DNA from: Cyanophyceae cyanobacterium
GTDB taxonomy: Bacteria > Cyanobacteriota > Cyanobacteriia > Cyanobacteriales > JBHJGN01
Assembly (NCBI GenBank): GCA_050331735.1
Contig: JBHJGN010000004.1
Coordinates: 1 to 64,000, forward strand
DNA: 64,000 bases
Direction: 5' to 3'
Shown here: positions 5,748 to 52,893 of the stretch, piece by piece
Layout: the number at the start of each line of letters is the position of its first letter
Numbering within the stretch: position 1 is the first letter of the stretch
The notes under the pieces: generated by a model
Seen by the model: only the letters and a program-made list of their open reading frames with translations
The model's database searches: none
Told to the model about the DNA's origin: nothing
Translations under genes and position numbers: made by a program

Positions 5748-5965
5748 TTACCAGTTACCAGTCTAGCAGTTAGCGCCACTGGCGTAGGGGAAAGGGGAAG
5801 CGCCACGGGCGCAGGGGAAAGGGCAAGGGGCAAAGGGCAAAGGGACTTAACCGTTATCAGTTTAATGAACTAGATTGGTCATTGGTCATTGTTTCCCCTT
5901 TCCCCTTTCCCCGTCGCGAACGCGACAATTTCCCCCTTCCCCGTCGCGGAGCGACTTACCCCCCC
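5748..5965. repeat. Composite heptamer-repeat tract carrying four short hairpins
   Basis: GGGGAAA/GGGCAAA arm, TTGGTCA repeats, TTTCCCC arm; hairpins at 5773, 5800, 5913, 5943. Confidence 0.8.
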
Positions 5966-8556
5966 CTCATCTGCTGGCAGTTGTGGGCGGGCAACCAGGA
6001 GCTTGGATTGGCAAGATTTGGTTCGGCGGTGAGAACAATGCTTCCGCTGTCTGTTCTAAGCCACCCTTGAGCTTCAATCAGTTTGTGACTCGCCGTTCGT
6101 TGTGGAGCCGGTACAGATTTTGGTGAAGTGGCGTAGGTAACTGACGGAGTATCTGTGATGCGCCAATCTTCCCAAAAGTTTTTCGGGCTAAACGCTCCCT
6201 GGGGAGAATCTGGCATTCCTCCGCGTCCGGTAATGGCAAATTCACTGCCTTCGCCGACGCTACAAACGTTTTGGTCAATCAGTTGCGCGACGTTGACAAC
6301 GTCTTGAGGCAGTTCGCCCAACTCTTCACCGGGATCGATTTCCGATGTGGTAATTTCGATAATGCCTTCTACTCCTAATTCCGAACTGGCGGTGATATCG
6401 TTAAAATCATTGCTGCTACGATCGCGGCTGGCAATGCCAAAGATCCCCTGAGCCGTAATATTAATATCACCTCCCCGACCCTCGGAAGCATCGGCCACAA
6501 TATTGCTATCTTCCCCGGGAACCGCAATCAGAAATTGAGTATCGATGGTGATATTTCCGCCATTGCCAGCGCCGTCTGCGGTGGTGCTAATTTCACTGTT
6601 ACTTTCTAGCTTCAAGAGTTTTTGGACGGCTAAATTAATATTGCCCCCTTCCTGACCAGAGGCCGTTTCAGCCGATAATTCGCCGCGCTCGAGTCTTACG
6701 AAGTCAGCAATAATATTTAAATCTCCTGCGTTGCTTTGGTTGCTATCGACTCCAACTACAGCACCGTCGCGGATAATCAGCTCTTCAGTATTAATGCTGA
6801 TTTCTCCGGCGGTAGCAACGCCAGAAGAGCGGCTGACGATCCGGCTGGGAAACGCTTCATCTGTTGAGGTTCCGTCCACTTCGATCTTTTCAGCAGCGAT
6901 TCTGATATTGTTGGCCGGACCTCCGTCTAGCTCGTCTTCAGAGAAAGACTGAAACACCAAAGAAGCCAGTGGTTCTCTTAACGTTAGCTCGCCACTATTG
7001 GTACTGATTCCTCCGCCATCGAGAATGGTTAACTGACCGGTATCAATCTCGATTTGACCTCCTTGGCCTTCAGCCCCGGCAATGGAAATGGTGGCAAAGC
7101 CCGATGAGTAGAGCGAATTTTCCGGAAACCCCTGCACAAAGATCGAATCAGAGGCATCGACCACAATTTTGCCGCCATTGCCCTGGCCAACGGTGCTGTT
7201 AGAAATTAAGCCCGCCTCCCAGAGGCGCAGACGCTCGGTTTCTACGGTAATAGTTCCAGCATTTCCTGTGCTCCCTCTAAGGACGGCCATTGAGATGCTG
7301 CCTCCTCTAAGGTTAACGTCCGAGGCTGCAACGCTGATGCTTCCTCCGGTCTCGTTCCCCAAAAGATTAACCGTGACCGTTCCGCCATCTTGAATGTTTA
7401 ATTGCTCAGTTTCTATGACAATATCCCCTGACTGACCAAATCCCTGAGTGCCTCCGAACAAACCGTTTTCTCGATCCCGTAAAGCCAGAGAGCCGTCTGC
7501 TGCCCTGAATACGTAAACCTGCTGATATTGCCCTAGTCCAGTTCCGGTGATGTCTATCGACTCAGAAGCACGCACGGTTAAATCTCCTCCCTTGCCGGAA
7601 CCAAACGTAGCGGCGGCAATAGAGGCTTCTTGCTCTAGCGTTAACGTGCCAGCTTGAATGTCAATGCCGTCGCCGTCGATTCTTCCTAACGTATCGGCAT
7701 AAATACTAGCTCCCTGGGTAAGAGTGATGTCCTGGCCTCTAACGCGAATTGTTCCTCCTCCTGGTCCGCTGGCATTGATGCTGGCCTGCTGAGAAAAGTC
7801 AATATTCTGGAAGTCCTGAACGTCATTGTATCGGGCGCTGATTTTCGTCCCCGTTGAGTCTAGCCTGACCAAGCTATTGGGACCGACGCTTCCTAGTTCA
7901 ATCCGTCCCTGGGGAGCAATGACATGACCACCTTCAATCTTGAGGGGGCCACCGATTAACCCAAGGGTTTGACCTCGCTCGACCTGCAAACCAACCGTGT
8001 TCCCGCTGGCGCTCGTTGCCTGAGAGCGGTTGACAATCGTTCCCGGATGCTGACCCATCTGTAAGCCAGTGGGGGTCGTGATGGTAAGTAACGGAGGAGC
8101 CTGCGGATTACTGGTGCTGAAGGCAAAGTTATTGAACAGTAAAGCGTCGGCGGTACTGGCCAGAAATGAGCCCGACAGATCTAGCTGCGCGTTTGGGCCA
8201 AAAACAATGCCGTTAGGATTGAGCAAAAATAGATCGGCAGAACCGAGTACGCCGAGGGTTCCTAAAATCGTAGAATGCTTGCTTCCCGTGACTCGACTGA
8301 TGATGCGTTCAATTCCTGATGGACTAGCGAAGTAAATTTGCTCTCCATCTCCCACGTTGAATTCAGAGAAACTGTGCAGCAGATTAGCGTTGCGTCTGGC
8401 ACCTCCAGTAATCACGCCGCGACTGTGCGCTGAACGCTCATCTCCTAAACTAGCATCGGGAGTGATTTGAGCGATCGCCCCTTGCTCGAGAGCTATCAGC
8501 ATGCAGCCTAGGGTGAGAGCGCCTAACCAGTTCCAGCGCTTAGCGGATTGAACCAT
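5956..8556 (-). CDS. Filamentous-haemagglutinin-family (TpsA-like) secreted beta-helix protein
   Basis: Signal peptide ending AIA-QITPD; TPS domain NLLHSFSEF, IISRVTG, LLNPNGIVFG; GG.I.I.. repeats; C-terminal TGRGG.P...IEAQGW domain. Confidence 0.9.
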   Translation of the reverse strand: MVQSAKRWNWLGALTLGCMLIALEQGAIAQITPDASLGDERSAHSRGVITGGARRNANLLHSFSEFNVGDGEQIYFASPSGIERIISRVTGSKHSTILGTLGVLGSADLFLLNPNGIVFGPNAQLDLSGSFLASTADALLFNNFAFSTSNPQAPPLLTITTPTGLQMGQHPGTIVNRSQATSASGNTVGLQVERGQTLGLIGGPLKIEGGHVIAPQGRIELGSVGPNSLVRLDSTGTKISARYNDVQDFQNIDFSQQASINASGPGGGTIRVRGQDITLTQGASIYADTLGRIDGDGIDIQAGTLTLEQEASIAAATFGSGKGGDLTVRASESIDITGTGLGQYQQVYVFRAADGSLALRDRENGLFGGTQGFGQSGDIVIETEQLNIQDGGTVTVNLLGNETGGSISVAASDVNLRGGSISMAVLRGSTGNAGTITVETERLRLWEAGLISNSTVGQGNGGKIVVDASDSIFVQGFPENSLYSSGFATISIAGAEGQGGQIEIDTGQLTILDGGGISTNSGELTLREPLASLVFQSFSEDELDGGPANNIRIAAEKIEVDGTSTDEAFPSRIVSRSSGVATAGEISINTEELIIRDGAVVGVDSNQSNAGDLNIIADFVRLERGELSAETASGQEGGNINLAVQKLLKLESNSEISTTADGAGNGGNITIDTQFLIAVPGEDSNIVADASEGRGGDINITAQGIFGIASRDRSSNDFNDITASSELGVEGIIEITTSEIDPGEELGELPQDVVNVAQLIDQNVCSVGEGSEFAITGRGGMPDSPQGAFSPKNFWEDWRITDTPSVTYATSPKSVPAPQRTASHKLIEAQGWLRTDSGSIVLTAEPNLANPSSWLPAHNCQQMRGG

Positions 8557-8704
8557 ACAGGCAAAGTTTTCTGGCGAAGATAATAGTGCATTGGCGAACA
8601 ATTATCTTAGATCGCTACCGTGGCAACTGTAAAATCTGCTTTTGATGCAGAATCGTGCAAAGCTGGCCGATTGTTGTGCAGCTTTTGTATTTAACAGCGA
8701 GTTT

Positions 8705-11068: not shown

Positions 11069-11125
11069 GGCAATGTTTTTTGACTTAGGTGCTACAAAAA
11101 TTCTAAGACTGGGAAAAGTATTATC

Positions 11126-11170
11126 TCCCTTTCCCCTTTCCCCTTTTCCCGCGCCGATGGCGCTCTCCCC
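11126..11170. repeat. TTTCCCC tract with GCGCC-GAT-GGCGC hairpin
   Basis: Seen directly between the upstream TpsA-like stop and the oxygenase start. Confidence 0.75.
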
Positions 11171-11176
11171 ATTCAA

Positions 11177-13444
11177 CTAATTGGACGCTCTCGCTGCTCC
11201 CTTGGCTGCGAGATGCTGGCATCCTTGGGGCGGCGTTATTCCTTGAGGAGTGGCAATGTTAGCTTGAGCCGTGAGAATTACGTTACCATCGGCCTTTCTG
11301 ACCCATCCGTGAGCTTCAATAATTGTGTCTTGAGTTCCCTGTGGTTGAGCGGGGGAGGGTTGTATTGGATCAGGTGACGGCTCTACGGTTGATGGCTCGA
11401 TGTCTTCAGCAATCCGCCAATCTTCCCAAGTATCATCAGAGCTAAAAGTTGTGTTAGGAGACTCTGGTAAACCGCCACGTCCGGTGACAGAAAACTCACT
11501 GCCGCCATGTCCCGTTGCACAAAGATTGCGGTCAATAATGCGAGCAACGTTAATTACTTCTTGCGGTAATTCAGCACGTTCTTCATTGAGTTCGGCTTCT
11601 GGCGTATTGATTTCTACAATGCCGTCTAAGCCAAACTGAGAGCTAGCCGTAATATCATTCAGCAGAGGATTGTCTTCTTCTCGTTCTTCGATTCCGAATA
11701 TACCTTGAGCTGTAATAGTAATGTTTCCTCCACTCCCATTAAAAGCATCAGCTCTAATATCGCTATTTTCTGAGGGAATCGCTACGAGTAAGTTAGTATC
11801 AATATTAATGTCGCCGCCGTCACCACCAGCGCCTTCAGTGCCTGCCGTCGTCGAGATGAGGCTGTTGTTACGTAAAAGTAATAACTCCTGCAATTTTATG
11901 TCAATATTGCCACCATCACCTGAAGAGGTCTCAGCAGTGAGTGTGCCTCTATCTAGTTCAGCAGAGCGAGCGGAAACTTTTAATGTACCTGCTCTCCCCC
12001 CTCCCGTATTGGCGACGCTGATTTTTGCTCCATCTTTAACTACTAACTGCTCAGTATCAATTCTTAAATCTCCAGCAGGCGCAGGAGTCTCACCCAGAAC
12101 AAACAAGCCACTAGTACTTTCATCTAAACTTTGTCCGCTTACTTCTACTGATTTAGAACTGTTGATTTGAATTGTTCCTGCACTACCTGTCTCGAAAGCA
12201 GAAGAATCTAGCTGTCCACCCTTTATAATACTTAGTTTCTCCGTGTCAATTATTATGTTTCCGGCACGACCGCTTCCAGAAGACTGAGTAGATATTCTGC
12301 TTAGAGCTGAGCCACCACTTATTTCTATAGATTCATCGGCATCTACAGTTATATTGCCTCCTCTTGCACTAGATTCAGTTTGCGCTTCTATAGCTGCATT
12401 ATCTCGAATAATAAGCTTGCCCGCTTCAATCCTTATATCACCTGCACTCTGATCGCCGAAAGTTGAGGCAGACACACTACTCTCGCCACTCAATTCTAAA
12501 GATTCAGAAGCATCAAACATAATGTTTCTACCTGGTTGTACACCGAAATTAAATGCAAGGATATTAGATCTACCTATAATTTCAATTTTTTTACCATGAA
12601 ATTGCATTGCTCCAGCTCCATTACCACTGGTATTTACAAAGGCTCCTTGAGAAAGTTGAATATCACCAAAGTCTTGGACATTTTCGTATTTTATTGTCCA
12701 TCCTTCAGAAGTCGGCTTCAAGCTAACGGGACTGGAACTAGCAATACTTCCAATTTCAACTCTTCCTTCTTGAGCTGTTAATATACCACCTTCTAAAAAA
12801 ACATCCCCACCTACGAGGGCTATAGTTTTACCTGGCTGTACCTGAAGACCAACAGGCACTCCATCCTGCTCTCCAACATCAGCGAAGACGAAACTACCTA
12901 TTGCCTGAGAAAGATTAGTAATACTCCTCGGATTTTCTCCAAACTGCAAGCCCGTAGGTACACTAATAGTTAATTGAGGTTGATCTTGGACATTAATAGC
13001 GTCGAAGAAAGTGCTGTCTTTAAACGTAAGACCGCTAGCTGTACTAGCTAAAAAGGAACCACCAATTTTTAGTGAAGCATTAGGGCCAAAAACAATACCG
13101 CTCGGATTAATGAGAAGCAAGTTAGCATTGCCTTCTGCTTTAACTAAACCATTAATATTAGAAGGTAGCCCTCCAGTTACACGACTAATAATGTTCTGAA
13201 TGTCTGTGGCATTCTTGAAAAGAGCTGAGCCTCCATTCGGTAAAGAGAAGTTGTCAAAGCTATGGAAAAGGTTATTCCCTTTTCGGCGACCACCAGTAAT
13301 GGAAAAATTATTGTTCTCCAATGGTTTTACATTAGTTTGTAGAGTGCCATCACTGTTAACTTGTACTGATTGCGCTTGCGCAGGTCTAGTTTTAGTTAGA
13401 CAAAGGATAAAGGTAGCAGCAAGAAAGAACAAAGACTTTTTCAT
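11177..13444 (-). CDS. Second filamentous-haemagglutinin-family (TpsA-like) protein
   Basis: Signal peptide MKKSLFF...AQA; NLFHSFDNF, IISRVTGG, LINPSGIVFG; same C-terminal domain as the 5956-8556 paralogue. Confidence 0.9.
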   Translation of the reverse strand: MKKSLFFLAATFILCLTKTRPAQAQSVQVNSDGTLQTNVKPLENNNFSITGGRRKGNNLFHSFDNFSLPNGGSALFKNATDIQNIISRVTGGLPSNINGLVKAEGNANLLLINPSGIVFGPNASLKIGGSFLASTASGLTFKDSTFFDAINVQDQPQLTISVPTGLQFGENPRSITNLSQAIGSFVFADVGEQDGVPVGLQVQPGKTIALVGGDVFLEGGILTAQEGRVEIGSIASSSPVSLKPTSEGWTIKYENVQDFGDIQLSQGAFVNTSGNGAGAMQFHGKKIEIIGRSNILAFNFGVQPGRNIMFDASESLELSGESSVSASTFGDQSAGDIRIEAGKLIIRDNAAIEAQTESSARGGNITVDADESIEISGGSALSRISTQSSGSGRAGNIIIDTEKLSIIKGGQLDSSAFETGSAGTIQINSSKSVEVSGQSLDESTSGLFVLGETPAPAGDLRIDTEQLVVKDGAKISVANTGGGRAGTLKVSARSAELDRGTLTAETSSGDGGNIDIKLQELLLLRNNSLISTTAGTEGAGGDGGDINIDTNLLVAIPSENSDIRADAFNGSGGNITITAQGIFGIEEREEDNPLLNDITASSQFGLDGIVEINTPEAELNEERAELPQEVINVARIIDRNLCATGHGGSEFSVTGRGGLPESPNTTFSSDDTWEDWRIAEDIEPSTVEPSPDPIQPSPAQPQGTQDTIIEAHGWVRKADGNVILTAQANIATPQGITPPQGCQHLAAKGAARASN

Positions 13445-13764
13445 GTACAATCTATGTGTTATTTAAAGCTTAAATTACAAGCTAAAGACAATAAACCTCT
13501 TCTGCCACTTTCCGTTATTTCAAATTAATACAAAATTTTTAAAGTCAACCGGCTCAACTTGAGCTATTGGTCGTCAAAATTTCTCCTCCTGAGCGCCGCA
13601 AAAAATTTCTATTGAGAAATAACTAAGCGAGCGCTTAGTGGATAAAGGTTACAAGGTTTAGAAATCGCCAGGAGTTTCGGAGTCTGACAGAAAAGAGACA
13701 ATGTATGTGGCAGCTCGAATTCTCGAATTAATGAGTAATGCCAAGAAGTAGTGGTGATTTATTA

Positions 13765-14878: not shown

Positions 14879-14910
14879 AAAACTATCGTTAAACACCAAG
14901 CAGATTCTCC

Positions 14911-23416: not shown

Positions 23417-25231
23417 ATGGCCTCATTTTGGGATATCCTTGGCTATTTTCGCCACTACAAAAGAGTCGCGTTTCTGAGCATCGCGGCATCGAGTCTGTTT
23501 GAAATTATTGATTTAGTCGTCCCCTACGCCATTGGTCAAATTCTCAATGTTCTCTCCAATCAACCTATAGACGAACCCATCGAGCGCTTATCAGCAGTTG
23601 TTGCGGCGCTCACCAATCTGCCAGCGGGACGTATCCTTTCATTAGGAGTGTTGCTCGGAATTATATTTTTAGTTACCGTTGTCAGAGCGCCCATTCAGCC
23701 CTGGATTAGCAACTGGTATCACTGGGCCATTACCCTTGAAGCGCGACGCGATCATTCCCGCAAAGTTTTAGAGAAGATCCTCACGCTGCCCCTTGGGTTC
23801 TACGACGAGAACAACCCGGGACGTATTTCTGGACGAGTCACAAAGGGACTAACTAACTACACCTGGACGTACCCCGAAATTGCGGGTCAGTTGATTCCTA
23901 AGCTGATGCGGGTGTTAGGCATTTTTGTGGTAATTTTGCTGATTGAGTGGCGCATTGCGATCGCCTTTCTAATCTCCTTTATTGTGATTCTTGGCTTCGA
24001 TCTCAAGCATCTCCAAAAGCTCATCAAGCAAGAGGAAAAACTAGACAAATACATCGAGAATACCAACAGCCGTACTTCAGAAATCATTACCAACATCAAA
24101 ACCGTTAAAGCTTTTGCCTCAGAAGCGGCTGAGTTAGAACGCCAGCGACAGCGCATCGAGCGAGAATTCAAGGTCGTGATCGATCGCATTCATCGCGGGT
24201 ATATCAAACTGGCCACTATTGATCGCACCATTATACAAAGCTGCGTGTTTTTGGTGCTGCTGTTTACGCTCATTGCTACTCTCCAAGGACAGATTACTCT
24301 CGGACACTTCATTACGGTGTTAACGGTTTCGAGTATGGCCTATGCTGAATTAGAACCCATTACTCAACTGACAGAAGTGTTTGCCCGGCGCTATGCGTCT
24401 CTACGTCGCTTTCAGGAGTTCATCCAGCTTCCAGCGGGAACCGATGCCGCGAGCCTGGTGCCAGAACCGCCATCCGCTAATCCCTATCGGTTCACGGGCA
24501 AAATTGAGCTGGAGCAGGTAACGTTTGGCTACGATCCGCAGCGTCCTGTCCTGCAAAACTTGAGTCTGCTCATCAAACCCTGTCAAACCGTGGCCCTAGT
24601 TGGTCGCTCTGGTTCAGGAAAATCAACTCTTGTTAAGCTGCTGTTCCGTTATTTTGACCCCAATGAAGGCCGAATTCTCATTGATGGCGAAGATGTCCGT
24701 ACCCTAGATATTGCTCGCTATCGAAGACGGCTGGCCATTGTGCATCAGGAGGTTGACATCTTTAACGGCACTGTCTTAGATAACCTGACTTACGGCAATC
24801 CTGGCGTCAGCTTTGCTCGCGTTGAGGAAGCCTGTCAAATTGCTAAGGTCGATGAGTTTATCGATGAGTTTCCCCACGGGTACTATACGGTTGTTGGAGA
24901 GCGGGGAGTGCGCCTCTCCGGAGGGCAAAGGCAGCGATTAGGTATTGCCCGTGCGCTGCTGGTCGATCCAGACGTGCTGGTGTTTGATGAAGCCACTTCT
25001 AGTTTAGATTACGAGTCAGAGCGCTTGATTCAGCTCGCGATGCGCTCTATTTTTGGCACTCGCACTACCGTGATTATTGCCCACCGTCTTAGTACCGTTA
25101 GAGAAGCCGATCAGATTGTGGTTCTCGACGCTGGCAAAATTGTCGAAGTCGGTTCTCATGACGAACTGCTCAATCATGGAGGGATTTACCATCGTCTCCA
25201 CTCACTCCAGGAAACGGGAGAGTTAACTTAA
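23417..25231 (+). CDS. ABC exporter, fused permease/ATPase
   Basis: TM domain; GRSGSGKST, LSGGQRQR, VFDEATS, IAHRLST. Confidence 0.95.
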   Translation: MASFWDILGYFRHYKRVAFLSIAASSLFEIIDLVVPYAIGQILNVLSNQPIDEPIERLSAVVAALTNLPAGRILSLGVLLGIIFLVTVVRAPIQPWISNWYHWAITLEARRDHSRKVLEKILTLPLGFYDENNPGRISGRVTKGLTNYTWTYPEIAGQLIPKLMRVLGIFVVILLIEWRIAIAFLISFIVILGFDLKHLQKLIKQEEKLDKYIENTNSRTSEIITNIKTVKAFASEAAELERQRQRIEREFKVVIDRIHRGYIKLATIDRTIIQSCVFLVLLFTLIATLQGQITLGHFITVLTVSSMAYAELEPITQLTEVFARRYASLRRFQEFIQLPAGTDAASLVPEPPSANPYRFTGKIELEQVTFGYDPQRPVLQNLSLLIKPCQTVALVGRSGSGKSTLVKLLFRYFDPNEGRILIDGEDVRTLDIARYRRRLAIVHQEVDIFNGTVLDNLTYGNPGVSFARVEEACQIAKVDEFIDEFPHGYYTVVGERGVRLSGGQRQRLGIARALLVDPDVLVFDEATSSLDYESERLIQLAMRSIFGTRTTVIIAHRLSTVREADQIVVLDAGKIVEVGSHDELLNHGGIYHRLHSLQETGELT

Positions 25232-25263: not shown

Positions 25264-25289
25264 GGGGGGAAGGGGGAAAGGGGAAGGGG
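25264..25289 (+). repeat. G-tract repeat with G-quadruplex-forming potential
   Basis: GGGGGG-AA-GGGGG-AAA-GGGG-AA-GGGG. Confidence 0.6.
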
Positions 25290-25466
25290 AAAAGGACGCG
25301 CTTGTTCTGTTACTTTCTGTGGGTGATGCATAGAGCTAGCAAAGAGACTGAAGCTGTTGGGGATGAATCGTTAATTTGCGTGAAGTATCGTTGCATTTAT
25401 TAAGGCTGCTGGCCAAGTATCCTTCATTTTTGTTTCAATAGAAACGCTCAAGAGCTGTATAAATGG

Positions 25467-26777
25467 ATGCGTATTACTCAGCAGCTAAGCCAGGTCGGAC
25501 AGATACTCAGCAAAAAACGGCTTTTCGTTTTACTGGCTGTGGCGATCGCCTTTTTCCCGTTTCTGTTTCAGCCAGTACTGACTCAGCAACCAGTGACGGT
25601 TACGGTTTTGTTGCAGTCAGGAGAAGCTTCGCAGTGGGAGCCTTTAGTGACAGAATTTGAGCAACAGAATCCAGATATTCGTTTAGAAATTATTCAAGGA
25701 CCGTTTGCCACCGATGCTGTCGAAGATTTATATACATCCTCCTTTCTTTTAGGCAATTCCCCCTATGATCTCGTTTATATGGATGTTGTCTGGGTGCCGA
25801 AGTTTGCAGCGGCAGGTTGGCTGCTGGATCTGTCTGAGCGAGTTTCCCCGTCAGAACTCGAGCAATATTTAGAGGGCGATGTTCGAGGCGGGATGTATCA
25901 GGGCAATCTGTATCGGATGCCGCTGCGTTCAGATGCCGGGATGCTGTACTACCGCACAGATTTACTAGAGGCAGCCGGATACTCTCCTCCGCAAACCTTT
26001 GAGGAATTGCTGCAAATAGCTCGGGAGTTGCAGACCCAAGGCGCTGTCCCCTGGGGGTATCTCTGGCAGGGCAAGCAATACGAAGGGCTATCTGCTATGT
26101 TTGTGGAAGTGTTAGCAGGGTTTGGAGCATTCTGGGTCGATCCGGATACTCTTGCGGTCGGACTCGATGAACCAGAAGCGATTCAGGCAGTAGAATTTCT
26201 GCGCAGCACCATAGAAATCGGGATTTCGCCCCCGGGGGTGACAACCTATACCGAAGAGGAAACCCGCCGCCTCTTCCAGAGCGGAAATGCCGCTTTTTTG
26301 AGAAATTGGCCCTACGTGTTTGGGTTAGCAGCCGATTCTCCGATTGCCGGAGAATTTTCGATTAAACCCATGGTACATCTACCGGGTCAAAGGAGCGGGG
26401 CTTGTTTAGGAGGATGGGGACTGGGGATTGCCAGTTCTAGCCCCCACCCGGATGAAGCGTGGCGAGTGATTGAATTTTTTAGCTCAGAGGCAGCGCAGCA
26501 GCCGTTTATTTTAGAAACAGGCTACGTTCCGAGTTTGCGATCGCTTTTTACTAACCCAGAAATTGTTGCCAAATTCAATCACTACCCGCAACTGCTAGCG
26601 GTCCTTGAAAATGCTGTCCTGCGACCTCCCATTGCCCAGTACGCTCAGGCTTCAGATATTCTTCAGCGCTATCTCAGTGCTGCCATCACCAACAGCATGA
26701 CTCCAGAGGCCGCCATGCGTTCAGCCGCCGAGGAAACGCGCCGCCTGTTAGGGGAAAGCGCCGTCGGCGCGGGGTAA
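25467..26777 (+). CDS. Carbohydrate ABC transporter substrate-binding protein
   Basis: DLVYMDVVW, LYYRTDLL, WQGKQYEGL, FLRNWPY; precedes two permeases. Confidence 0.9.
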   Translation: MRITQQLSQVGQILSKKRLFVLLAVAIAFFPFLFQPVLTQQPVTVTVLLQSGEASQWEPLVTEFEQQNPDIRLEIIQGPFATDAVEDLYTSSFLLGNSPYDLVYMDVVWVPKFAAAGWLLDLSERVSPSELEQYLEGDVRGGMYQGNLYRMPLRSDAGMLYYRTDLLEAAGYSPPQTFEELLQIARELQTQGAVPWGYLWQGKQYEGLSAMFVEVLAGFGAFWVDPDTLAVGLDEPEAIQAVEFLRSTIEIGISPPGVTTYTEEETRRLFQSGNAAFLRNWPYVFGLAADSPIAGEFSIKPMVHLPGQRSGACLGGWGLGIASSSPHPDEAWRVIEFFSSEAAQQPFILETGYVPSLRSLFTNPEIVAKFNHYPQLLAVLENAVLRPPIAQYAQASDILQRYLSAAITNSMTPEAAMRSAAEETRRLLGESAVGAG

Positions 26778-26938
26778 AGGGGAAAGGGTAAGGGGGAAAG
26801 GGAGTAATGATTGAGTTTCTTCCTTAATCCTGTGTTCTTTTCCCGCCCTCAGTGCGGCTGATTTCCCTTTTCCCGTTCCGCAGGAACTGCTTCCTCCTTG
26901 CCCCTTCCCCGTTCCGCAGGGACAATTTCCCTCTTCCC
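26751..26938 (+). repeat. Composite dispersed repeat (purine arm, conserved core, pyrimidine arm with hairpins)
   Basis: Core TTCCTTAATCCTGTGTTCTTTTCCCG shared with 51041-51170 and, inverted, 47997-48166. Confidence 0.8.
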
Positions 26939-26959
26939 TAACCTAAGCCGTGAAATTGT

Positions 26960-39768: not shown

Positions 39769-40022
39769 ACGGGACGGGGAAGGGGAAATCGCTTCGCGAT
39801 GGGGGAAATAGTTGCTCCGCAACGGGGAAGCAGTGCGACCCCGCGTCGGCGAAAGACGCAAGGGAACGCGCACCAAGACAGGGGGAAAGGGGAAGGGGGA
39901 AAGGAATCAAGATTTATGGGGAGGACTGTTCTCACATAGCTATGAGGGCGAGGGAAAATACAAATTAATCATTCCCTATTTCCCGTGCCGAAGGCACTAC
40001 TCCTTCCCGTAGCTAACGCTGC
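39769..40022. repeat. Composite purine/pyrimidine repeat tract with several hairpins inside the chemosensory operon
   Basis: Hairpins at 39788, 39811, 39843, 39985; GGGGAAA tracts. Confidence 0.75.
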
Positions 40023-42389: not shown

Positions 42390-45182
42390 GTGGCAAACTG
42401 GCAACACGACCTGCGATCGCAGTTTCTCGTCGAAGCCCGCGAGCACATCGAGCAGCTCGAAGCGGGTTTGCTCGGGATTGGCACCTCCGGCCTCACCCGA
42501 GAAGGACTGGATGCGCTATTGCGCGCTGCCCACTCCCTCAAAGGCGGAGCGGCCATGATGGAGCTGCTGCCCCTCAGTCATCTGGCTCATCGCCTCGAAG
42601 AAGTGCTCAACGGATTGCGCTCCGCTGCCCCTCTCGATATTGCCATCGAGGAAAAGCTGCTGCGGAGCATCGATGCCCTACGCCGCGTGGTCTCTCTCTA
42701 TCAGCAAGGAACAGCGGTGACAGAGACGTGGCTCCAGTCAGAGGCAGAGCCGCTGTTTGACGAACTCCAGCAGCATCTCGGCCCCCCGCCCCCGGAGGAG
42801 CCGCTTGTCCCAGAGACCGAGGGAAACCTCCAGCAGACTTTGTTTGAAACCGAAGTCGCTGCCTGTCTCCAGCGGCTAGAAACGGTGCTAGCCACTCCCG
42901 ACCAGCCCTGCCTGCGGGAAGAAATTTTGCTGGCGGCTCAGGAGCTCGGCGGTTTAGGGGAGATGCTAGAGCTAGATTCCTGGCATCAGCTCTGCCTGTC
43001 GATTCAGCAGCAGCTCGAAGACAGCACGACAGAGCAGACTGAGGCGATCGCTCGGTCGGCTTTGGAGCAGTGGTGGCGCGGACGAACGCTAATTCTCAAC
43101 GGTCAAGGAGAGGCTGTTCCCACGGCTGTCCGGGGAAGTGTCCCAGAGCAGTCAGCGCTAGTGGTAGACGTTAGCACAGACCTCGCAGCCACTTCACCAG
43201 CCGTCCCTGCTGAAATTGAGATTGCGTCAGGGCTGCTCCCTCCTTCCGCTCAGGAGACCGTGCGCGTGGCGGTAGAGCAGCTTGACCAGTTCAGCAATCT
43301 GTTTGGCGTACAGACCATCGAGCGCAATGGGTTAGAGCAGCAGCTTCAGGCCCTGCGTCGCTTAGTCGGTTTGCTGCACCAGAAAGGGCGGGTTCTCCAA
43401 GATGCCAATGCTCGCGTTCAAACCGCCTGCGACCAGATGGCCGCCACACCTTCCCGAATGCCCGCTTTCGTTTCTTCGAGCGGGAACGATGGACTAGACA
43501 TGGACCGCTACAGCGAGCTTCACCTACTGTCTCAGGAGGTTACGGAAGTAACGGTCCAGATTCAGGAAATTGCCGACGACCTTCAGTTGGGGCTAGAGGA
43601 CTCCGAACGCACGGTGCGAGAACTGGGGCGCAACTCTAAGCTGATGCAGAAGGGATTGACCCAGATGCGGATGCGCCCACTCTCTGAACTCCTAGACCGT
43701 TTCCCCCGGGCTCTGCGAGAGATGGAGCTGCACTACGGCAAAACAGTGCGTCTCCAGGTCAGCGGGGAAGCCACCCTCATCGATCGCACCATCCTCGATG
43801 TTCTCAACGAACCGCTGCTGCATCTGCTCCGCAATGCCTTTGCCCACGGCATCGAGGAGCCAGACCAGCGCCGCGCCTGCGGTAAACCAGCCCAGGGCAG
43901 CATCACCATTCGCGCTCGCTATCGCGGGCATCAGGTGGCAATTGCCGTTAGTGACGATGGGGGCGGTATTCCCTTTAACAAAATTCGGTTCCAAGCCCGC
44001 AAGAGAGGCTATGAGGGGCCTCTATCCCAGCGAGAACTGCTCAACCTGATTTTTGAGCCAGGATTTAGCACCGCTGAGCGAGTCACCAATCTAGCCGGAC
44101 GAGGCGTAGGCATGGACGTTGTTCGCACTAATCTTCGCCAGATTCGCGGCGATATTCAGGTCGAGACTCGTCCCGGGGCCGGAACCACCTTCACCCTCAC
44201 CGTTCCTCTCTCCCTTTCGGTTCTCAAGGTGATGCTGGTAGAGGTTAATCACCTGCTCCTCGCCTTTCCGACCAATACCGTCGAAGAAGTCTTGCTGCTC
44301 AAGCCCGAGATGCTGCTTCAGTCGGCGGGGAAAGAGTTCATCAACGTCGCCGGAGTCGTCATTCCCCTAGTCGAGCTCCGTCAGTGGCTTCAGCATCCCC
44401 AGGTCGAGCGCGGCACCATCGAAGCCGCTCCGGCGATCGATGCTTCTGTTGCGCTAATTTCAACGCGCGGCACTCATTTTTCCGCCCTGACCGCCGACCG
44501 TTACTGGGGCGAGCAGGAAGTCACCATTCGCCAGGTAGAAGGAAATCTGCCTCTGCCTCCCGGCTTTTCCGGCTGTACAATTCTCGGCGATGGACGTGTC
44601 GTCCCGTTAGTCGATGCGATCGCCCTCCTCAACTGGATTGAACAGGAACAGCGTCGCCCAGAACCAGCCGGTTTCCCCTCAGTTCCGAACGCGCTTCCTC
44701 AAGCAGAGCCGAATCTTCCGCCCACCGTTATGGTCGTCGATGATTCCGCGACCGTTCGCCGCTTTTTGGCGCTTGCCTTAGAGCGAGCGGGATATCGCGT
44801 CGAGCAGGCCAAAAACGGTCAGGACGGACTAGAAAAACTGCAACGACAGCCCGTACAGGCTGTCGTTTGTGACCTAGAGATGCCAGGAGTAGACGGCTAT
44901 AGTTTCCTCAGCCAGGTCAGAGCCAGTCCCGACTATCAGACCCTCCCCGTGATTATCCTCACCTCCCGCAGTAGCGACCAGCATCGCTCTAGGGCTATGG
45001 AGCTAGGCGCGAACGCCTACGTGGTCAAACCCTACAAAGAGCCGGAGCTTCTGCAACTCATTGAGCAAGTCCTCCAAGAGGAGGAAAGGGAATATCGCTA
45101 TGCGATGGGGAAAGGGGAAAGGGAAAAGGGAAATCTGTCCCTCCGGGACGGGAAAGAAAAAACAGTGAACAGTGAGCAGTGA
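42390..45182 (+). CDS. CheA-like hybrid kinase (Hpt-HATPase-CheW-REC)
   Basis: RAAHSLKG; HLLRNAFAHG, DDGGGI, GRGVGMDVV; C-terminal REC VDDS...CDLEMP. Confidence 0.95.
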   Translation: MANWQHDLRSQFLVEAREHIEQLEAGLLGIGTSGLTREGLDALLRAAHSLKGGAAMMELLPLSHLAHRLEEVLNGLRSAAPLDIAIEEKLLRSIDALRRVVSLYQQGTAVTETWLQSEAEPLFDELQQHLGPPPPEEPLVPETEGNLQQTLFETEVAACLQRLETVLATPDQPCLREEILLAAQELGGLGEMLELDSWHQLCLSIQQQLEDSTTEQTEAIARSALEQWWRGRTLILNGQGEAVPTAVRGSVPEQSALVVDVSTDLAATSPAVPAEIEIASGLLPPSAQETVRVAVEQLDQFSNLFGVQTIERNGLEQQLQALRRLVGLLHQKGRVLQDANARVQTACDQMAATPSRMPAFVSSSGNDGLDMDRYSELHLLSQEVTEVTVQIQEIADDLQLGLEDSERTVRELGRNSKLMQKGLTQMRMRPLSELLDRFPRALREMELHYGKTVRLQVSGEATLIDRTILDVLNEPLLHLLRNAFAHGIEEPDQRRACGKPAQGSITIRARYRGHQVAIAVSDDGGGIPFNKIRFQARKRGYEGPLSQRELLNLIFEPGFSTAERVTNLAGRGVGMDVVRTNLRQIRGDIQVETRPGAGTTFTLTVPLSLSVLKVMLVEVNHLLLAFPTNTVEEVLLLKPEMLLQSAGKEFINVAGVVIPLVELRQWLQHPQVERGTIEAAPAIDASVALISTRGTHFSALTADRYWGEQEVTIRQVEGNLPLPPGFSGCTILGDGRVVPLVDAIALLNWIEQEQRRPEPAGFPSVPNALPQAEPNLPPTVMVVDDSATVRRFLALALERAGYRVEQAKNGQDGLEKLQRQPVQAVVCDLEMPGVDGYSFLSQVRASPDYQTLPVIILTSRSSDQHRSRAMELGANAYVVKPYKEPELLQLIEQVLQEEEREYRYAMGKGEREKGNLSLRDGKEKTVNSEQ

Positions 45183-45257
45183 CCAGGCTGGTTCATTTAA
45201 CTGCTCACTGTCAAGTCCCTCCCTTTCCCCCTGACCCTTTTCCCGCGCCAGCGGCGC
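45082..45257. repeat. Composite repeat overlapping the CheA 3' end
   Basis: GGGGAAA tract, hairpins at 45094, 45137, 45245, CAGTGAN heptamers. Confidence 0.78.
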
Positions 45258-45278
45258 AGCAAGTAACGGATACAAAGT

Positions 45279-46677: not shown

Positions 46678-46761
46678 TTTGCTCGTTGAAGAATGTGGAA
46701 CCTTCATCAGAAAATAGCGGTCTAAGAGGAGAAGGATGGTGTAGTGTTAATAAATAAGTTA

Positions 46762-47418: not shown

Positions 47419-47522
47419 TCGGTGTTAGGCAGGAGTGCGTGTCAGTCGGATAAATATTTTTTCTAGATTTTTACTTTTGCTGAAAGAGAACGGATAATAG
47501 AAGTAGCGCCGTCCGCATCACC

Positions 47523-47996
47523 TTGAACTTTGAGCCTCACACAACAAAAGCAATGGACAATTCTGAACGAGATCGCTTTGAACTATTAAGTGCTTATTTA
47601 GACGGGGAAGTAACGCCAGCGGAACGCCGTCAGGTGCAGCAGTGGTTAGACAACGACCCGTCAATGCAGCAGCTATATGCTCGGCTGCTGCGGTTACGGC
47701 AGGGGATACAGCATCTTCCCTGTCCTGATGTTCAGCAGCCGTCTAAGCAGTTAACCGAGGCCGTCTTTCAACAAATCGACAGACAGCGAAATCGGCGGAG
47801 AGCGCTTTGGGGAGGAGGAATTGCTGCACTGGTTATTGGCGCACTCTCGGGCTTACTGGCAGAAAGACCGCTCCCTCGTTTTGCTCAAGCACCAGAAAGT
47901 AGCTCCGAGCAATTAGTGATTGCTCTTAACAAACCTGCCGTTGCCATTCCCGCCGCCGCCACCCCTGCCGTCCTTCCATTAGAAACGCAAAAGTAA
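47523..47996 (+). CDS. Membrane-anchored anti-sigma factor
   Basis: RFELLSAYLDGEVTPAERRQVQQWL; single TM; directly downstream of sigG. Confidence 0.85.
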   Translation: MNFEPHTTKAMDNSERDRFELLSAYLDGEVTPAERRQVQQWLDNDPSMQQLYARLLRLRQGIQHLPCPDVQQPSKQLTEAVFQQIDRQRNRRRALWGGGIAALVIGALSGLLAERPLPRFAQAPESSSEQLVIALNKPAVAIPAAATPAVLPLETQK

Positions 47997-48166
47997 GGGG
48001 CAGTCCCTACAGGATGGGGAAAGGGAAAATCGCTCCGCGACGGGAATAGAACGCAAGAATAAGGAACATGCTGATTTATTCTGCCTTTCCCCCGCGCCTA
48101 GGAGCGCTTTCCCCTGACCCTTGTCCCGCAGCTTTGCTGCTCTCCCCGCGCCGGTGGCGCTTTCCC
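47997..48166 (-). repeat. Composite dispersed repeat, inverted copy
   Basis: Reverse-complement core TGTTCCTTATTCTTGCGTTCTATTCCCG; hairpins at 48003, 48029, 48094, 48128, 48148. Confidence 0.78.
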
Positions 48167-48549
48167 GTCCACCATCCAGATGGCAGCAATACGCCGCCAA
48201 GCTGCTGGACCATCTCCCACGCCATCAGGTAAGCCCACGCGGTGCCAAGAGGCTCTCCAGCAGGAGTATAAATCGCTCTTTTCTGACGATAGTATTCGTT
48301 TTCTTGGGGCGGTCTGTTGGGCTGGTAATCTTCTAACTCGTCTAAGACCGTTAAAATTGACGGGTCGGGGAAAACTAGTAAAAAACCCTCCACTCGACTG
48401 TTGCCAGGAATCATCGCCGGGTAACCCAAAGGAAGAGTGAATAGTTCCCCCCAGGTATAGCTTCTGACCGCTTCTAGGACTTGCCCCGCACACAATCGAT
48501 GATTGATTTCTCCTGGCTTCAGAGTTCCGTAAGTAAACACCTTCTCCAC
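48076..48549 (-). CDS. Gamma-glutamylcyclotransferase (AIG2-like) family protein
   Basis: VFTYGTLKPG, GYPAM, LDELE, AWAY; last ~30 aa are repeat-derived. Confidence 0.88.
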   Translation of the reverse strand: MEKVFTYGTLKPGEINHRLCAGQVLEAVRSYTWGELFTLPLGYPAMIPGNSRVEGFLLVFPDPSILTVLDELEDYQPNRPPQENEYYRQKRAIYTPAGEPLGTAWAYLMAWEMVQQLGGVLLPSGWWTGKRHRRGESSKAAGQGSGESAPRRGGKAE

Positions 48550-48581
48550 AACAAATCTTTGGTCATCCCCCTATGTTCTCT

Positions 48582-49520: not shown

Positions 49521-50065
49521 AAATTTCCCCTCAGCAGAAGTAAATGGTGCTTGCAACTCTCAATGGGATTAATTGTATAGGGAGAAGCAATCTCCTCGCA
49601 AAGCAAGCTGTCACAAATTGCGTAGCGGCAGCAAGACTTGAGCGGAAAACCGTCTGTCCTGGCGTAGAAGCAGACGCAATTGTTAGCAAAGCAAAACAAG
49701 AATGAGCTGAGAACATAGAGCATTAAAAATGTAGAAACAACCAACGCTCGCCGGAATTATCTAGAGTACTTCCGTGGAAAATCGACAATGCTCTACCGAT
49801 AAAGCGCTAAGTTTGTTATAAAAGTGTTGCTTTGACCCATAAAGATGGTTGAGCTTGAGCTGATGCTCATTTACTTTATTAGGAGCTTTAAAGCTCAAGT
49901 AAAAGCAGTCTGATCGAGTAAATTTCTGGTTCTAGCAAATCTAACCAACAAGGTTATACAAACATTGTTGAGCTGGGAAGATTAGAGTAAATTGCTTATT
50001 GGATTGCTATATCAATGTGCAGATCGATTCAAAACACTCATATGAACATCTACTTTCATCAAAAC

Positions 50066-51040
50066 ATGCTGCGGTATTTAGGAATTTTGGCTGGTGCAGG
50101 GGCGCTGCTGATTGGGGTAGCGACTGCTGACGCACAGGCCCAAACAAATGATTCTGATTCAGCGATCCAGCTTGCCCAAAATCAGGAGAGGCGACGGGTT
50201 GCAGTGCTTGATTTCGACTTTAGCAGCATTAGTTCTCCCGATCTGCTGGCAGCCTTTCCGGGAATTGCGAGAGGAACGAGCGAGCTTTTAACCAATCAGT
50301 TGGTTAATGAAGGCTCGTTCTCTGTCGTGGAGCGCAGCCGCATTCAAAAGATTTTAGACGAACAGGATTTAGGCGAAGCGGGCAGACTAGATGCCAGTAC
50401 GGCTGCTCAAATTGGGCGAGTATTGGGAGTCGATGCCGTTATTGTGGGTAGCGTCACTCAGTTTGACGTGCAGGAGGAAAGATCTGGATTTAGCATTGGT
50501 GGCTTGTTTGGTGAGAGAAAGCGTACCATGACCGCTGATGTTCAGCTCAATGCTCGCATGATTAACACTAACACCGGAGAAATCATCTCAACAGCGGAAG
50601 GAACTGGCCAAGCCGAACAGCGCGACGGTTCTACTCAAGTTCTAGGAGTCGGTGGCGGTAGCGAAACAGATAATCGGCAGCAGCTTCTCAGCGAGGCGAC
50701 GAGACAAGCCGTGGCCGCCATTACCAACCAGCTAACCAATTCATCGGGGGATGTCGCTGCTGTCGGCAGTGGTCCTGAAGCAGCTCTCATTGCTGATATT
50801 ACTGGCGATACGGTAGTCCTGAATCGAGGCACTGCCAACGGCTATCGTCAAGGAATGCAGGTAGCGGTTGAGCGAGTTGCCAGAGAAATTAAAGACCCCG
50901 AAACCGGAGAAGTAATTCGCCAGGTAACTGAGCAAATTGGTTTGATTGAGCTCACAGACGTTGATCAATCCTCCAGCTTAGGGAGAATTCTATCGGGCTC
51001 TAACTTTCAAGTTGGAGACACAGCGAAACCCGTTCAGTAA
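50066..51040 (+). CDS. CsgG/HfaB-family secreted protein with extra C-terminal domain
   Basis: Signal peptide; RVAVLDFD, FSVVERS...ILDEQ, QIGRVLGVDAVIVGSVTQF; start uncertain (50015-50066). Confidence 0.82.
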   Translation: MLRYLGILAGAGALLIGVATADAQAQTNDSDSAIQLAQNQERRRVAVLDFDFSSISSPDLLAAFPGIARGTSELLTNQLVNEGSFSVVERSRIQKILDEQDLGEAGRLDASTAAQIGRVLGVDAVIVGSVTQFDVQEERSGFSIGGLFGERKRTMTADVQLNARMINTNTGEIISTAEGTGQAEQRDGSTQVLGVGGGSETDNRQQLLSEATRQAVAAITNQLTNSSGDVAAVGSGPEAALIADITGDTVVLNRGTANGYRQGMQVAVERVAREIKDPETGEVIRQVTEQIGLIELTDVDQSSSLGRILSGSNFQVGDTAKPVQ

Positions 51041-51170
51041 AGCGCCTGCGGCGCGGGAAAAGGGCAAGGGGTAAAGGGAAAAGGGAATTATTCTTAAGCT
51101 TGTTCCTCAATCCTGTGTTCTTTTCCCGTCCTGGAGGGACGATTTCCCCATTCCCCGTCCCGAAGGGACA
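51041..51170 (+). repeat. Composite dispersed repeat
   Basis: Begins immediately after the stop; hairpins at 51042, 51128, 51157; core TGTTCCTCAATCCTGTGTTCTTTTCCCG. Confidence 0.8.
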
Positions 51171-51197
51171 TATAATAATCGAGTTCGATTATTGTCT

Positions 51198-52661
51198 ATG
51201 ATGAGCAGCGATCGCCTCCCGGATTGGCAAAATTCAACCATTTTGATTCTTGGCGATGCCATGCTAGACTGCTATCTTCGCGGCACATCGACTCGTCTTT
51301 GTCAAGAGGCTCCAGTGCCTGTGGTAGCTGTTGCTGAGCGCCGGGATGTCCCTGGAGGAGCGGCTAATACAGCAGCCAACGTCAGCAGTCTTGGCGGCAG
51401 AGCGATTCTGCTGGCGGTGATTGGGGATGACGATGAAGGTTGTCGGCTTCAGCAAAGCCTTCAGCAGCAGGGAGTCAGGACCGATCGCCTTTTGGTGGAT
51501 GCCTCCCGCACAACGCTCACGAAGCAGAGAACAATTGCCGCTTCTCAACTGCTAGTGCGGGCCGACTGGGGCAGTACGGCGGCGCTCTCGCACTCTACTG
51601 AGCAAAAGCTGCTCGCTAGTCTCCAGGAGCTGTTCCCCACCTGCGATGGAGTGATCGTTTCTGATTACGGCTACGGCATCCTCACGCCACGAGTCATTCG
51701 AGCCCTGTCCGAGCTTCAGCGCCAGCATCCGCGCGTGGTTGCGGTGGACTCTAAGCAGCTAGCTGCCTATCGCGAGGTGGGCGTGACCGCCGCTAAACCA
51801 AACTATGCGGAAGCCATACAGTTGCTCAACTTACCTGTAGTGGAAGAGGAGCGGGTGTCCCAGCTCAAAACCCAGGGAGAGCCACTGCTGACGCGGACAG
51901 GAGCCAAGCTGGTTGCCGTGACGCTAGATAGAGAGGGAGCGCTGGTGTTCGAGCGCGATCGCTCTCCGATTCAAACCAGTGCAACTCCCACCTCAAACTT
52001 GCAGGCAACGGGAGCTGGCGATACCTACATCAGTGCGTTAACCCTAGCGTTAACAGCTAACGCTCCCGCTGCTGTTGCCGCGTCTTTAGCAGCAGCGGCA
52101 ACAGCAGTTGTCGTCACCGCAGCAGGCACGACCACTTGTCGAGCTGACCAACTACTTGCCATAGCTAATCCAAAAATCAGCCGTGAGCGATCGCACTTAG
52201 CCGCGTCAGTCCAGCAATACCGCGCCGCTGGCAAACAGATTGTGTTTACCAACGGCTGTTTTGATATTCTTCATCCCGGACACGTTACTTATTTGCAGCA
52301 GGCCAAGGCCCTGGGAGATATTCTGATTCTCGGCGTTAATTCTGATGAAAGCGTCAAAGGTTTAAAGGGCCCCTCCCGCCCCATCAATCCTTTGGCAGAT
52401 CGTCTGACTGTCCTCGCGGGGTTAGCTAGCGTCGATTATGTAATCGCCTTTGATGAGGCAACTCCCATTGAGCTGCTCAAAATTCTTCGTCCTGATATTT
52501 ACGTTAAAGGCGGCGACTATACGCCAGAGACTTTGCCAGAAGCCCCAGTCGTGAAAGAATTAGGAGGGATTGTCAAGATTCTCCCCTTTGTAGAGAACCG
52601 CTCGACAACGGCAATTATTGAGCGAATCATGAGTCCCTCTGAGACGAGAAAAGCGCCGTAG
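51198..52661 (+). CDS. hldE: Bifunctional heptose-7-phosphate kinase / heptose-1-phosphate adenylyltransferase
   Basis: GDAMLD, EAPVPV, GGAANTA, TGAGDT (PfkB); FTNGCFDILHPGH, KGGDY, STT. Confidence 0.9.
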   Translation: MMSSDRLPDWQNSTILILGDAMLDCYLRGTSTRLCQEAPVPVVAVAERRDVPGGAANTAANVSSLGGRAILLAVIGDDDEGCRLQQSLQQQGVRTDRLLVDASRTTLTKQRTIAASQLLVRADWGSTAALSHSTEQKLLASLQELFPTCDGVIVSDYGYGILTPRVIRALSELQRQHPRVVAVDSKQLAAYREVGVTAAKPNYAEAIQLLNLPVVEEERVSQLKTQGEPLLTRTGAKLVAVTLDREGALVFERDRSPIQTSATPTSNLQATGAGDTYISALTLALTANAPAAVAASLAAAATAVVVTAAGTTTCRADQLLAIANPKISRERSHLAASVQQYRAAGKQIVFTNGCFDILHPGHVTYLQQAKALGDILILGVNSDESVKGLKGPSRPINPLADRLTVLAGLASVDYVIAFDEATPIELLKILRPDIYVKGGDYTPETLPEAPVVKELGGIVKILPFVENRSTTAIIERIMSPSETRKAP

Positions 52662-52893
52662 GCGCGAAGGGTAGGTAGGTGGCGACAGAAACAGCTAAAA
52701 GGGAATCAGTGTTCGGTAGTTGTTTCCAATAGAGGGATTCATGAATTGGCGGTTATAAATTGAAGCCTCTCTCTCATTAGTAATCAGAAGAATGTTTCAA
52801 CTTAGAACAATCAGAAAATAACTATTACTTCCTTTTCCCTTCCCCTTTTCCCATAGCTAAGGTGCTTGCATAACACTATCAAGTTAAATTTGT

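Follow-up and report, generated by a model that had tools for sequence, protein, structure and literature searches.

A lineage-specific family of very small paired hairpins docked in GGGGAAA tracts of a cyanobacterial genome

Can a hairpin of 13-14 nt, found again and again at the same position of a tandem repeat, be a mobile element in its own right, or is it a part of something larger? The question is raised by a 64,000-nt stretch of DNA (the window) from contig 4 of a cyanobacterial assembly of 5.57 Mb, with 99 contigs and 49.5% G+C, whose source organism is represented by this one metagenome assembly only. An earlier note on the window had listed 22 such hairpins in tracts of the heptamer GGGGAAA and proposed that they are a structure-recognised, site-targeted mobile micro-element served by a trans-acting enzyme. 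We found that the hairpin family is real and statistically robust, and that it is specific to this lineage. As to what moves, we hold with moderate confidence that a lineage-specific, non-coding intergenic repeat with two arms spreads mainly as a whole module, and that the hairpins are its sub-modules.

All 22 listed hairpins were verified in the window with exact letters, and an imperfect copy at 48094-48107 was missing from that list. When the alignment is oriented to the pyrimidine strand, 18 of the 21 triloop copies directly follow CCC, as had been reported for nearly all of them; the exceptions are two copies with one T in between and one that follows CCCTTC. The reported GNA loop on the pyrimidine strand was likewise found in 11 of the 13 copies that start with GT or AT, with exceptions at 45094 (ATA) and 5913 (a GAAC tetraloop). 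Across the window set, 98.1% of pair cells are paired, compared to 72.5 ± 3.2% after shuffling (0 of 500 shuffles reach the observed value), and both sides change in four of the five stem pairs, yet this pairing test is circular because the copies had been picked by eye for their pairing. The copies sit in larger two-armed modules, save that the feature at 11127..11163 is a single arm.

Across the whole genome, CCC followed by a perfect hairpin with a 5-bp stem and a 3-nt loop (5-3-5) occurs 668 times, compared to 139, 154, 170, 146, and 156 times in five dinucleotide shuffles, confirming the enrichment. Taken together, all 5-3-5 hairpins are barely enriched (6477 vs 5902-6133 shuffled). The stem census was based on a search for CCC, a non-C base, and a perfect hairpin with a 3- or 4-base loop, in which hairpins lying after a tract of at least 11 pyrimidines in 14 were considered tract-docked. 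Of 882 such sites, 613 are tract-docked, and nine stems account for 570 of those: GTCCC (161), GTCGC (101), GCGCC (94), GTTGC (73), and GTTCC (69), followed by the rarer GCAGC (30), ATCGC (17), GCCGC (14), and GTGCC (11). The earlier description of stems that vary while pairing is kept therefore stands for the pairing but not for free variation, given these nine discrete types. Per stem, CCC precedes 122 of 132 genomic copies of GTCCC, 77 of 88 of GTTGC, 58 of 65 of GTTCC, and 86 of 105 of GTCGC (counts halved, both strands having been counted).

The hairpin begins 0 nt after the C-run of the heptamer, and this docking is fixed, in agreement with what was proposed from the window. The commonest 5' flanks among 961 sites were TTTCCCC (255), TTTTCCC (154), and CTTCCCC (91). 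Docking is also polar: on the 5' side of the C-run, perfect hairpins at a distance of 0 or 1 nt were observed at only 1 and 2, respectively, of the tract starts examined. For a non-circular measure of pairing, all 883 strict tract ends with a purine next to them were taken; a perfect 5-bp stem comes immediately after 214 of them, compared to 19.2 ± 4.0 when the stem partners were shuffled (1000 shuffles, maximum 32). The distribution is bimodal, with five pairs at 214 tract ends, four at 59, and three at 85. Three of the five stem pairs covary at these tract ends: pair 2 is T-A in 162 and C-G in 51, pair 3 is C-G in 90, T-A in 69, G-C in 47, and A-T in 8, and pair 4 is C-G in 134 and G-C in 78, with pairs 1 and 5 nearly fixed as G-C and C-G. 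The 214 perfect copies comprise 59 distinct 13-mers, the commonest of which was seen 24 times. Stem covariation, tract docking, and polarity thus support the proposal of a real, structure-recognised family.

The loops follow the strand. On the pyrimidine strand of the 613 tract-docked copies, GGA (164), GCA (71), GAA (40), and GTA (21) were observed along with GNNA tetraloops, while their complements TCC (7), TGC (22), TTC (13), and TAC (8) are scarce. It is the GT-type stems that carry GNA or GNNA loops on this strand. The GCGCC and GCAGC stems stand outside the rule, with TGC (19), GAC (12), TGT (12), and GCA (11) as their loops. C-GNA-G triloops are exceptionally stable in single-stranded DNA.

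To place the hairpins in their larger context, copies within 300 nt of each other were grouped, giving 309 loci. A locus consists of a purine arm of (GGGGAAA)n, the G arm, a short core, and a pyrimidine arm of (TTTCCCC)n, the C arm, and hairpins dock as AAA-hairpin-GGGG in the former and as CCCC-hairpin-(A/T)(A/G)TTT in the latter. The genome holds 503 heptamer tracts, with GGGGAAA as the commonest unit. We observed 131 transitions from G arm to C arm and none from C to G, and bare tracts follow the same G-then-C order, 54 to 0. With so strict an arm order, either strand is able to fold into a long hairpin from which the mini-hairpins project as side branches.

Sequence homology extends beyond the hairpins. 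The window module at 26751-26940 has 203 matches across the genome, and 60 of these align over at least 125 nt (125-190 nt) through a unique core that is shared with the module at 51042-51169, and the left end of this core alignment is mostly a GCGCC hairpin. Of 125 pairs of innermost hairpins on opposite arms, 2.4% have the same stem, compared to 17.5% expected, and neighbours within an arm share both stem and loop in 17.6% of 165 pairs, compared to 3.1% expected. Two spacings are preferred between within-arm neighbours, 29-30 nt (in 65 pairs) and 36-37 nt (in 38), which is the length of one hairpin unit with two or three heptamers added. Twenty-nine copies could be compared at the slot that comes first behind the core motif, 16 of them perfect, with the stems GTCCC (11), GTCGC (6), GTCCT (3), GTTCC (2), and ATCCC (2), and with loop variants that track sub-lineages. 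This variation is covariation at a homologous site, which argues for descent with the module and against fresh insertion. The arms are complementary as tracts, and neither a target-site duplication nor sharp inverted termini could be recognised in the module alignment. Indels between paralogous modules peak at 13-14 nt; as proof of mobility they were rejected, the tracts being of low complexity and the sites not orthologous.

The hairpin family is confined to this lineage. The degenerate pattern TTYCCCGTYSCGNAGSRAC has 261 matches in this genome (138 forward, 123 reverse; none for the reversed control) and one match each in two of 400 other genomes of the order. A tract-only pattern has 533 matches here, 138 in one relative (G033), and one to five in 11 further genomes, with none in 28. 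The arrays read in three relatives (three arrays in G033, and arrays in G027 and G016) are plain, without mini-hairpins. The closest relatives compared have ~70% DNA identity in genes, none being from the same family or genus, and their spacers are shorter than those of this genome and unalignable with them. A metagenome scan with a 19-nt word comprising a hairpin and its flank returned 65 loci, all of them single matches in contigs unrelated to this genome, with 47-71% G+C (mostly above 55%). One sequencing run contains the window DNA, and is possibly the source of the assembly; its contigs show no insertions or deletions. Contig joints seen in that run come from other copies of the repeat.

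The search for the trans-acting enzyme that the earlier note had postulated did not yield a partner. Eight Y1-transposase matches were found in the genome, five of them with a TnpB-sized neighbour, and the repeat lies within 1.5 kb of two of the eight, as chance gives. All six matches that were scored against NCBIfam belong to the IS200 equivalog, and two with internal stops were scored only against the model for RAYTs, the tyrosine transposases associated with repetitive extragenic palindromic (REP) sequences. This model (NF047646) has a cut-off of 80 bits, which nothing in the genome passes, the best scores being 26.4 and 24.7. There is no gene of the four-helix-bundle family PF05635 in this genome, and the one reverse transcriptase gene is unlinked to the repeat.

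With respect to genes, which were called crudely as longest open reading frames (ORFs) for these statistics, 158 modules lie in tandem gaps, 60 in convergent gaps, and 25 in divergent gaps, against a background of 2034, 628, and 639 gaps. A module edge is typically close to a stop codon (median 27 nt, with 94 of 278 edges within 10 nt) and farther from a start codon (median 122 nt). In the window, the modules begin 0-15 nt from a stop, or an ORF reads into them (e.g., 5955/5956 and 51040/51042). The orientation of the core has no tie to transcription, being the same in four cases and opposite in six, too few for more to be said. No replication-strand bias of the hairpins was observed against the sign of the GC skew, which is weak here. 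Terminator-like sites are not enriched, with 15 between 39000 and 53000 compared to 15.5 ± 4.1 shuffled, and no Rfam family matches within the window.

The two-armed module at 5773..5955 illustrates the anatomy. Its G arm carries hairpins at 5773-5785 and 5800-5812 with a tract at 5814-5844, and a unique core leads to a C arm with a tract at 5895-5912 and hairpins at 5913-5926 (the GAAC loop) and 5943-5955. The module is flush with the stop codon of the minus-strand ORF 5956..8601, and in its RNA fold the arms pair, with the mini-hairpins as side branches (z-score -4.74). In the core (5860-5895) there is a short run of another heptamer, TTGGTCA x2 (ggtcattggtcattg), which we take to resemble the classical unit of the short tandemly repeated repetitive (STRR) sequences. 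The single C arm at 11127..11163 on the plus strand, composed of a tract at 11127-11150 and the hairpin GCGCC-GAT-GGCGC at 11151-11163, sits 14 nt past the stop of the minus-strand ORF 11177..13450. The full module at 26751..26940 lies between a gene for an ABC-transporter binding protein and a permease gene. Its G arm consists of a hairpin (26758-26770) and then a tract (26771-26802), after which come the conserved core (~26803-26845) and a C arm with hairpins at 26875-26887 and 26911-26923; the binding-protein ORF (25467..26777) runs into the G arm, and the fold z-score is -3.52. A bare GGGGAAA-type tract at 25264-25295, with neither mini-hairpin nor pyrimidine arm, was also seen ~30 nt past the stop of ORF 23417..25231.

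Further along the window, the module at 39775..39997 follows a CheW gene. Two hairpins (39788-39800 and 39811-39823) and a tract at 39881-39899 make up its G arm, in which a structured insert of ~50 nt (39829-39880) is nested, and its C arm has one hairpin at 39985-39997. The module at 45094..45257 lies at the end of a CheA-like ORF that runs into it; its G arm has hairpins at 45094-45106 and 45137-45149 around a tract at 45107-45130, and its C arm combines a tract (45217-45231) with one hairpin (45245-45257). The module at 48003..48160 lies between convergent genes, with G-arm hairpins at 48003-48015 and 48029-48041 and C-arm hairpins at 48094-48107 (the imperfect copy), 48128-48140, and 48148-48160; here the C arm and the minus-strand ORF 48076..48549 overlap in the tail of the ORF, past its GGACT domain. 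The full module at 51042..51169, which has the core family of 26751-26940, comprises a hairpin at 51042-51054 that begins 2 nt past the TAA stop of ORF 50015..51040, a G tract at 51055-51085, the core, and C-arm hairpins at 51128-51140 and 51157-51169 (fold z-score -3.64). Last comes a weak module at 52653..52853, in which the TAG stop of ORF 51192..52661 falls within the loop of the hairpin GCGCC-GTA-GGCGC (52653-52665); a degenerate G arm comes after this hairpin, and there is a bare C tract at 52837-52852. Several ORFs thus take their last codons or stop from the repeat (26751-26777, 45094-45182, 48076-48165, and 52653-52661), and in three of them, the binding protein, the CheA-like kinase, and the GGACT protein, there is a repeat-encoded tail past the last Pfam domain.

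Two other small elements were noted in this genome. One is a TA-flanked miniature inverted-repeat transposable element (MITE) of 129-158 nt with inverted ends, present in ~85 copies, of which two are in the window at 2259-2401 (plus strand) and about 2555-2700 (minus strand); some copies are at contig ends, and in some the tract joins the element to a C arm that bears hairpins. Its main sub-family has about 50 near-identical copies that differ only in having one to five internal TTTCCCC units, and none of them has gained a hairpin. The other is the ~50-nt insert at 39829-39880, which has 12 genomic matches that are 85-98% identical and is also found on contigs C55, C1, C54, C72, C15, C32, and C26 of this genome. 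Directly before 10 of the 11 tract-embedded copies stand a mini-hairpin and GGGGAA, with a stem that differs between copies. Eleven of 40 other genomes of the order also have the insert, with identities reaching 98%, compared to only ~70% for genes. In these relatives it lies inside IS701-like, IS630-like, TnpB, and Uma2-like ORFs, some of which read through it in frame, and also inside GGGGA(C/T)T heptamer arrays. Its covariation is modest, with three pairs that change on both sides, and the insert had no Rfam match, nor was its sequence found in the literature.

How could such a family arise? If the whole module spreads, it would do so in the manner of MITEs or of REPINs (paired REP sequences that form hairpins), settling only a few bases away from stop codons. 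Slippage of heptamers, and duplication in tandem of units made of a hairpin and its tract, would afterwards alter the arms. The stems remain perfectly paired even as the stem type changes at homologous slots, with GT-type stems keeping C-GNA-G or C-GNNA-G loops on the C-rich strand. This last rule suggests that the C-rich strand is read in single-stranded form. Recognition or formation on C-rich single-stranded DNA appears more likely than on RNA because the loop asymmetry follows tract polarity and not transcription, and because one-mismatch stems show no G.T preference; any transcript would have a 5' arm with TNC loops and GNA loops on its 3' arm only. As the mobile unit, we rank the 13-nt hairpin itself below the module because arm-specific stems, tandem duplicates, and slot-specific lineages, together with the strict arm order and the unique core, point to larger units.

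Several observations weigh against spread by whole modules. The core that was tested is common to only 60 of about 300 loci and 130 of the 309 loci hold a single hairpin, and whole-module copying is therefore unproven for most loci. Module copies are only ~70-80% identical, with no recent burst visible, and no target-site duplication was recognised in them. Paralogous modules differ by exact hairpin indels, 33 of the 39 hairpin-holding indels being 12-15 nt, and one MITE sub-family, but not two others, carries a mini-hairpin in its internal tract; both of these fit insertion at the level of the hairpin as well as they fit module copying. The one-mismatch stems on the C strand (A.C or C.A in 29, G.T or T.G in 17) give no positive sign of which strand is read, no enzyme is linked to the repeat, and neither an RNA run nor a second strain with this DNA was found among the sequencing runs searched.

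Much of the same evidence would follow if, as the earlier note had it, each 13-15-nt hairpin were a non-autonomous insertion element, placed 3' of CCCC on the pyrimidine strand by a trans-acting enzyme of HUH/Y1 type that recognises hairpins in single-stranded form, with the modules being tracts that have collected insertions. We consider this unlikely, although it has a good deal in its favour: IS200/IS605 elements insert 3' of a fixed tetranucleotide beside a hairpin, eight Y1 transposase genes are present, hairpins dock at a fixed point, 0 nt from the C-run, on the strand that also shows the loop asymmetry, and the perfect copies reduce to few master sequences. The exact hairpin-sized indels, the hairpin-bearing MITE sub-family, and the relative G033, where the 138 tract matches come with no hairpin-pattern match and no hairpins in the three arrays read, fit insertion too. 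Against this, the ~50 near-identical MITE copies changed their heptamer number with no hairpin gained, and independent insertion would not give arms that so rarely share a stem. Neighbours within an arm look like duplicates, and at the homologous slot the stem types sort by module sub-lineage. What look like "empty" sites among paralogues are in tracts of low complexity and do not count as true ones, no Y1 gene adjoins the repeat, and none is a RAYT. A bolder form of the idea, and in our view a long shot, is that the 13-15-nt hairpins are true insertion elements and the smallest mobile DNA yet seen, which an enzyme reading both their shape and their C-GNA-G loop would write into single-stranded DNA 3' of CCCC, and that they mark landing sites for other small structured inserts. 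The landing-site idea comes from the ~50-nt insert, given its position after a mini-hairpin and GGGGAA in nearly all of its tract-embedded copies with the stem differing.

Selection by the host, or no selection at all, could also be invoked. The long hairpin formed by the two arms, with its side hairpins, might be a cis-element after stops that works on transcripts or on DNA, such as a 3'-end stabiliser, a terminator, an inter-cistron insulator, or a protein-binding site, as proposed for REP sequences and bacterial interspersed mosaic elements (BIMEs). The proximity of module edges to stops relative to starts, the under-representation of divergent gaps (25 of 243 vs 639 of 3301), the conservation of pairing and loop type, and the stable folds of the arms (z-scores from -3.5 to -4.7) would all be expected, and one module occupies the gap between binding-protein and permease genes, a classic REP position. 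Yet no conserved host function needs the family, because it is absent from 398 of the 400 sampled genomes of the order. Terminator-like sites occur at the shuffled level, a transcript would carry GNA loops on the 3' arm and only their complements on the 5' arm, the window has no Rfam match, and ORFs often run into the arms, as expected for insertions; we regard host selection as the explanation as doubtful. What we regard as very improbable is that the hairpins are a neutral by-product of replication in homopurine/homopyrimidine arrays, in which fold-back or template switching makes short inverted duplications from the tract sequence and quasi-palindrome correction, a process known from E. coli, keeps the halves matched and mimics covariation without selection. 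The commonest stems are indeed tract-like (TCCC/GGGA in GTCCC..GGGAC, TTCC/GGAA in GTTCC..GGAAC), pairing is bimodal, as concerted correction would yield, mismatches are mostly transitions (46 of 59), and heptamer number changes fast in the same genome. But the abundant, identical tracts of G033 have no hairpin-pattern match, nor hairpins in the three arrays read there, and no hairpin arose in the ~50 recent MITE tracts. Nor does such a process predict the GNA/GNNA loop rule or the fixed G-C and C-G end pairs, and the GCGCC, GCAGC, GTCGC, and GTTGC stems are not tract-like.

Our preferred reading remains a two-armed module that spreads mainly as a whole, with the hairpins as its sub-modules. 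The origin and spread of very small repeats, whether REP sequences, small dispersed repeats (SDRs), or heptamer arrays, is an old open question, and the present family is an unusually clean case, with fixed docking, strand-specific loops, covariation at homologous slots, a strict architecture, and relatives that have bare tracts. Genomes of sister strains could reveal directly whether the heptamer, the hairpin, or the module is the moving unit, and the C-GNA-G loops, being strand-specific, lead to a concrete hypothesis, recognition in the form of single-stranded DNA, which is open to testing in vitro.

Among known repeats, the anatomy is closest to that of REPINs and BIMEs, failing three defining features of REP sequences: size, the GTAG/CGTC tag, and the RAYT. 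As far as the available portions of the sources go, REP sequences and REPINs are extragenic, high-copy palindromes whose inverted pairs form a long hairpin when single-stranded, be it as DNA or as mRNA (Bertels and Rainey 2011, PMC3116915; Di Nocera et al. 2013, PMC3733652), and a REP is defined there as an imperfect palindrome of about 20-40 bp with GTAG or CGTC at one end (PMC3733652). On these descriptions, the present repeat shares with REP sequences, BIMEs, and REPINs its extragenic, palindromic, high-copy nature, its position after genes, and its lineage-specific abundance, and, as in REPINs, inverted doublets predominate (131 transitions vs 0), even though 130 of 309 loci are single. 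Unlike a REP, its unit is 13-14 nt with a 5-bp stem rather than 20-40 bp, and carries no GTAG/CGTC tag, having a CCCC 5' flank and a start of GT or GC. The units are, moreover, embedded in heptamer arrays, there is no RAYT gene in this genome, and, unlike in a REPIN, the two arms carry different stems and not two copies of one REP.

The module also resembles MITEs and the hairpin-ended derivatives of IS200-IS605 elements in being non-coding, ~120-200 nt long, complementary at its ends, and dispersed in gene gaps. It differs from MITEs in that it has no recognised target-site duplication or sharp inverted termini and no partner transposase has been identified, and the true TA-flanked MITE of the same genome looks quite different from it. 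By word or by sequence, a description of the family was not found in the literature, the SDR1-8 sequences having been left uncompared. The SDR1-8 class of Elhai et al. 2008 reportedly consists of repeats of 21-27 nt, some in heptamer arrays and some hairpin-forming. SDR5 of the Nostocaceae, according to the accessible parts of the papers, is a 21-nt unit that docks precisely inside HIP1 (PMC5861425, PMC4390886, PMC13756078), and the portion of PMC5861425 available reports no SDR-like repeat outside Nostocaceae. By these partial descriptions, our units are like SDRs in being very small dispersed repeats that dock precisely, at one set position within a host repeat, and unlike them in length (13-14 nt vs 21 nt for SDR5) and in a host outside Nostocaceae, the comparison being one of description only.

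G-rich heptamer arrays are known as long simple-sequence repeats from Xanthomonas and Nostoc, where, in the part of the source available, they are intergenic, nearer to the upstream ORF, and fast in varying their unit number (Rehm et al. 2015, PMC4692102), and those of Xanthomonas are paired as inverted G-rich and C-rich arrays (PMC4692102). The same partial text does not report, for the Xanthomonas and Nostoc arrays, interruptions by covarying mini-hairpins in fixed phase such as those found here (PMC4692102). As far as this description reaches, the present arrays agree with the STRR sequences of heterocystous cyanobacteria and with these heptamer arrays in being intergenic tandem heptamers near the upstream ORF, with a median edge-to-stop distance of 27 nt, and in a fast-changing unit number; they form inverted pairs as those of Xanthomonas do, and differ from the known arrays in being built of GGGGAAA, with a pure purine strand.

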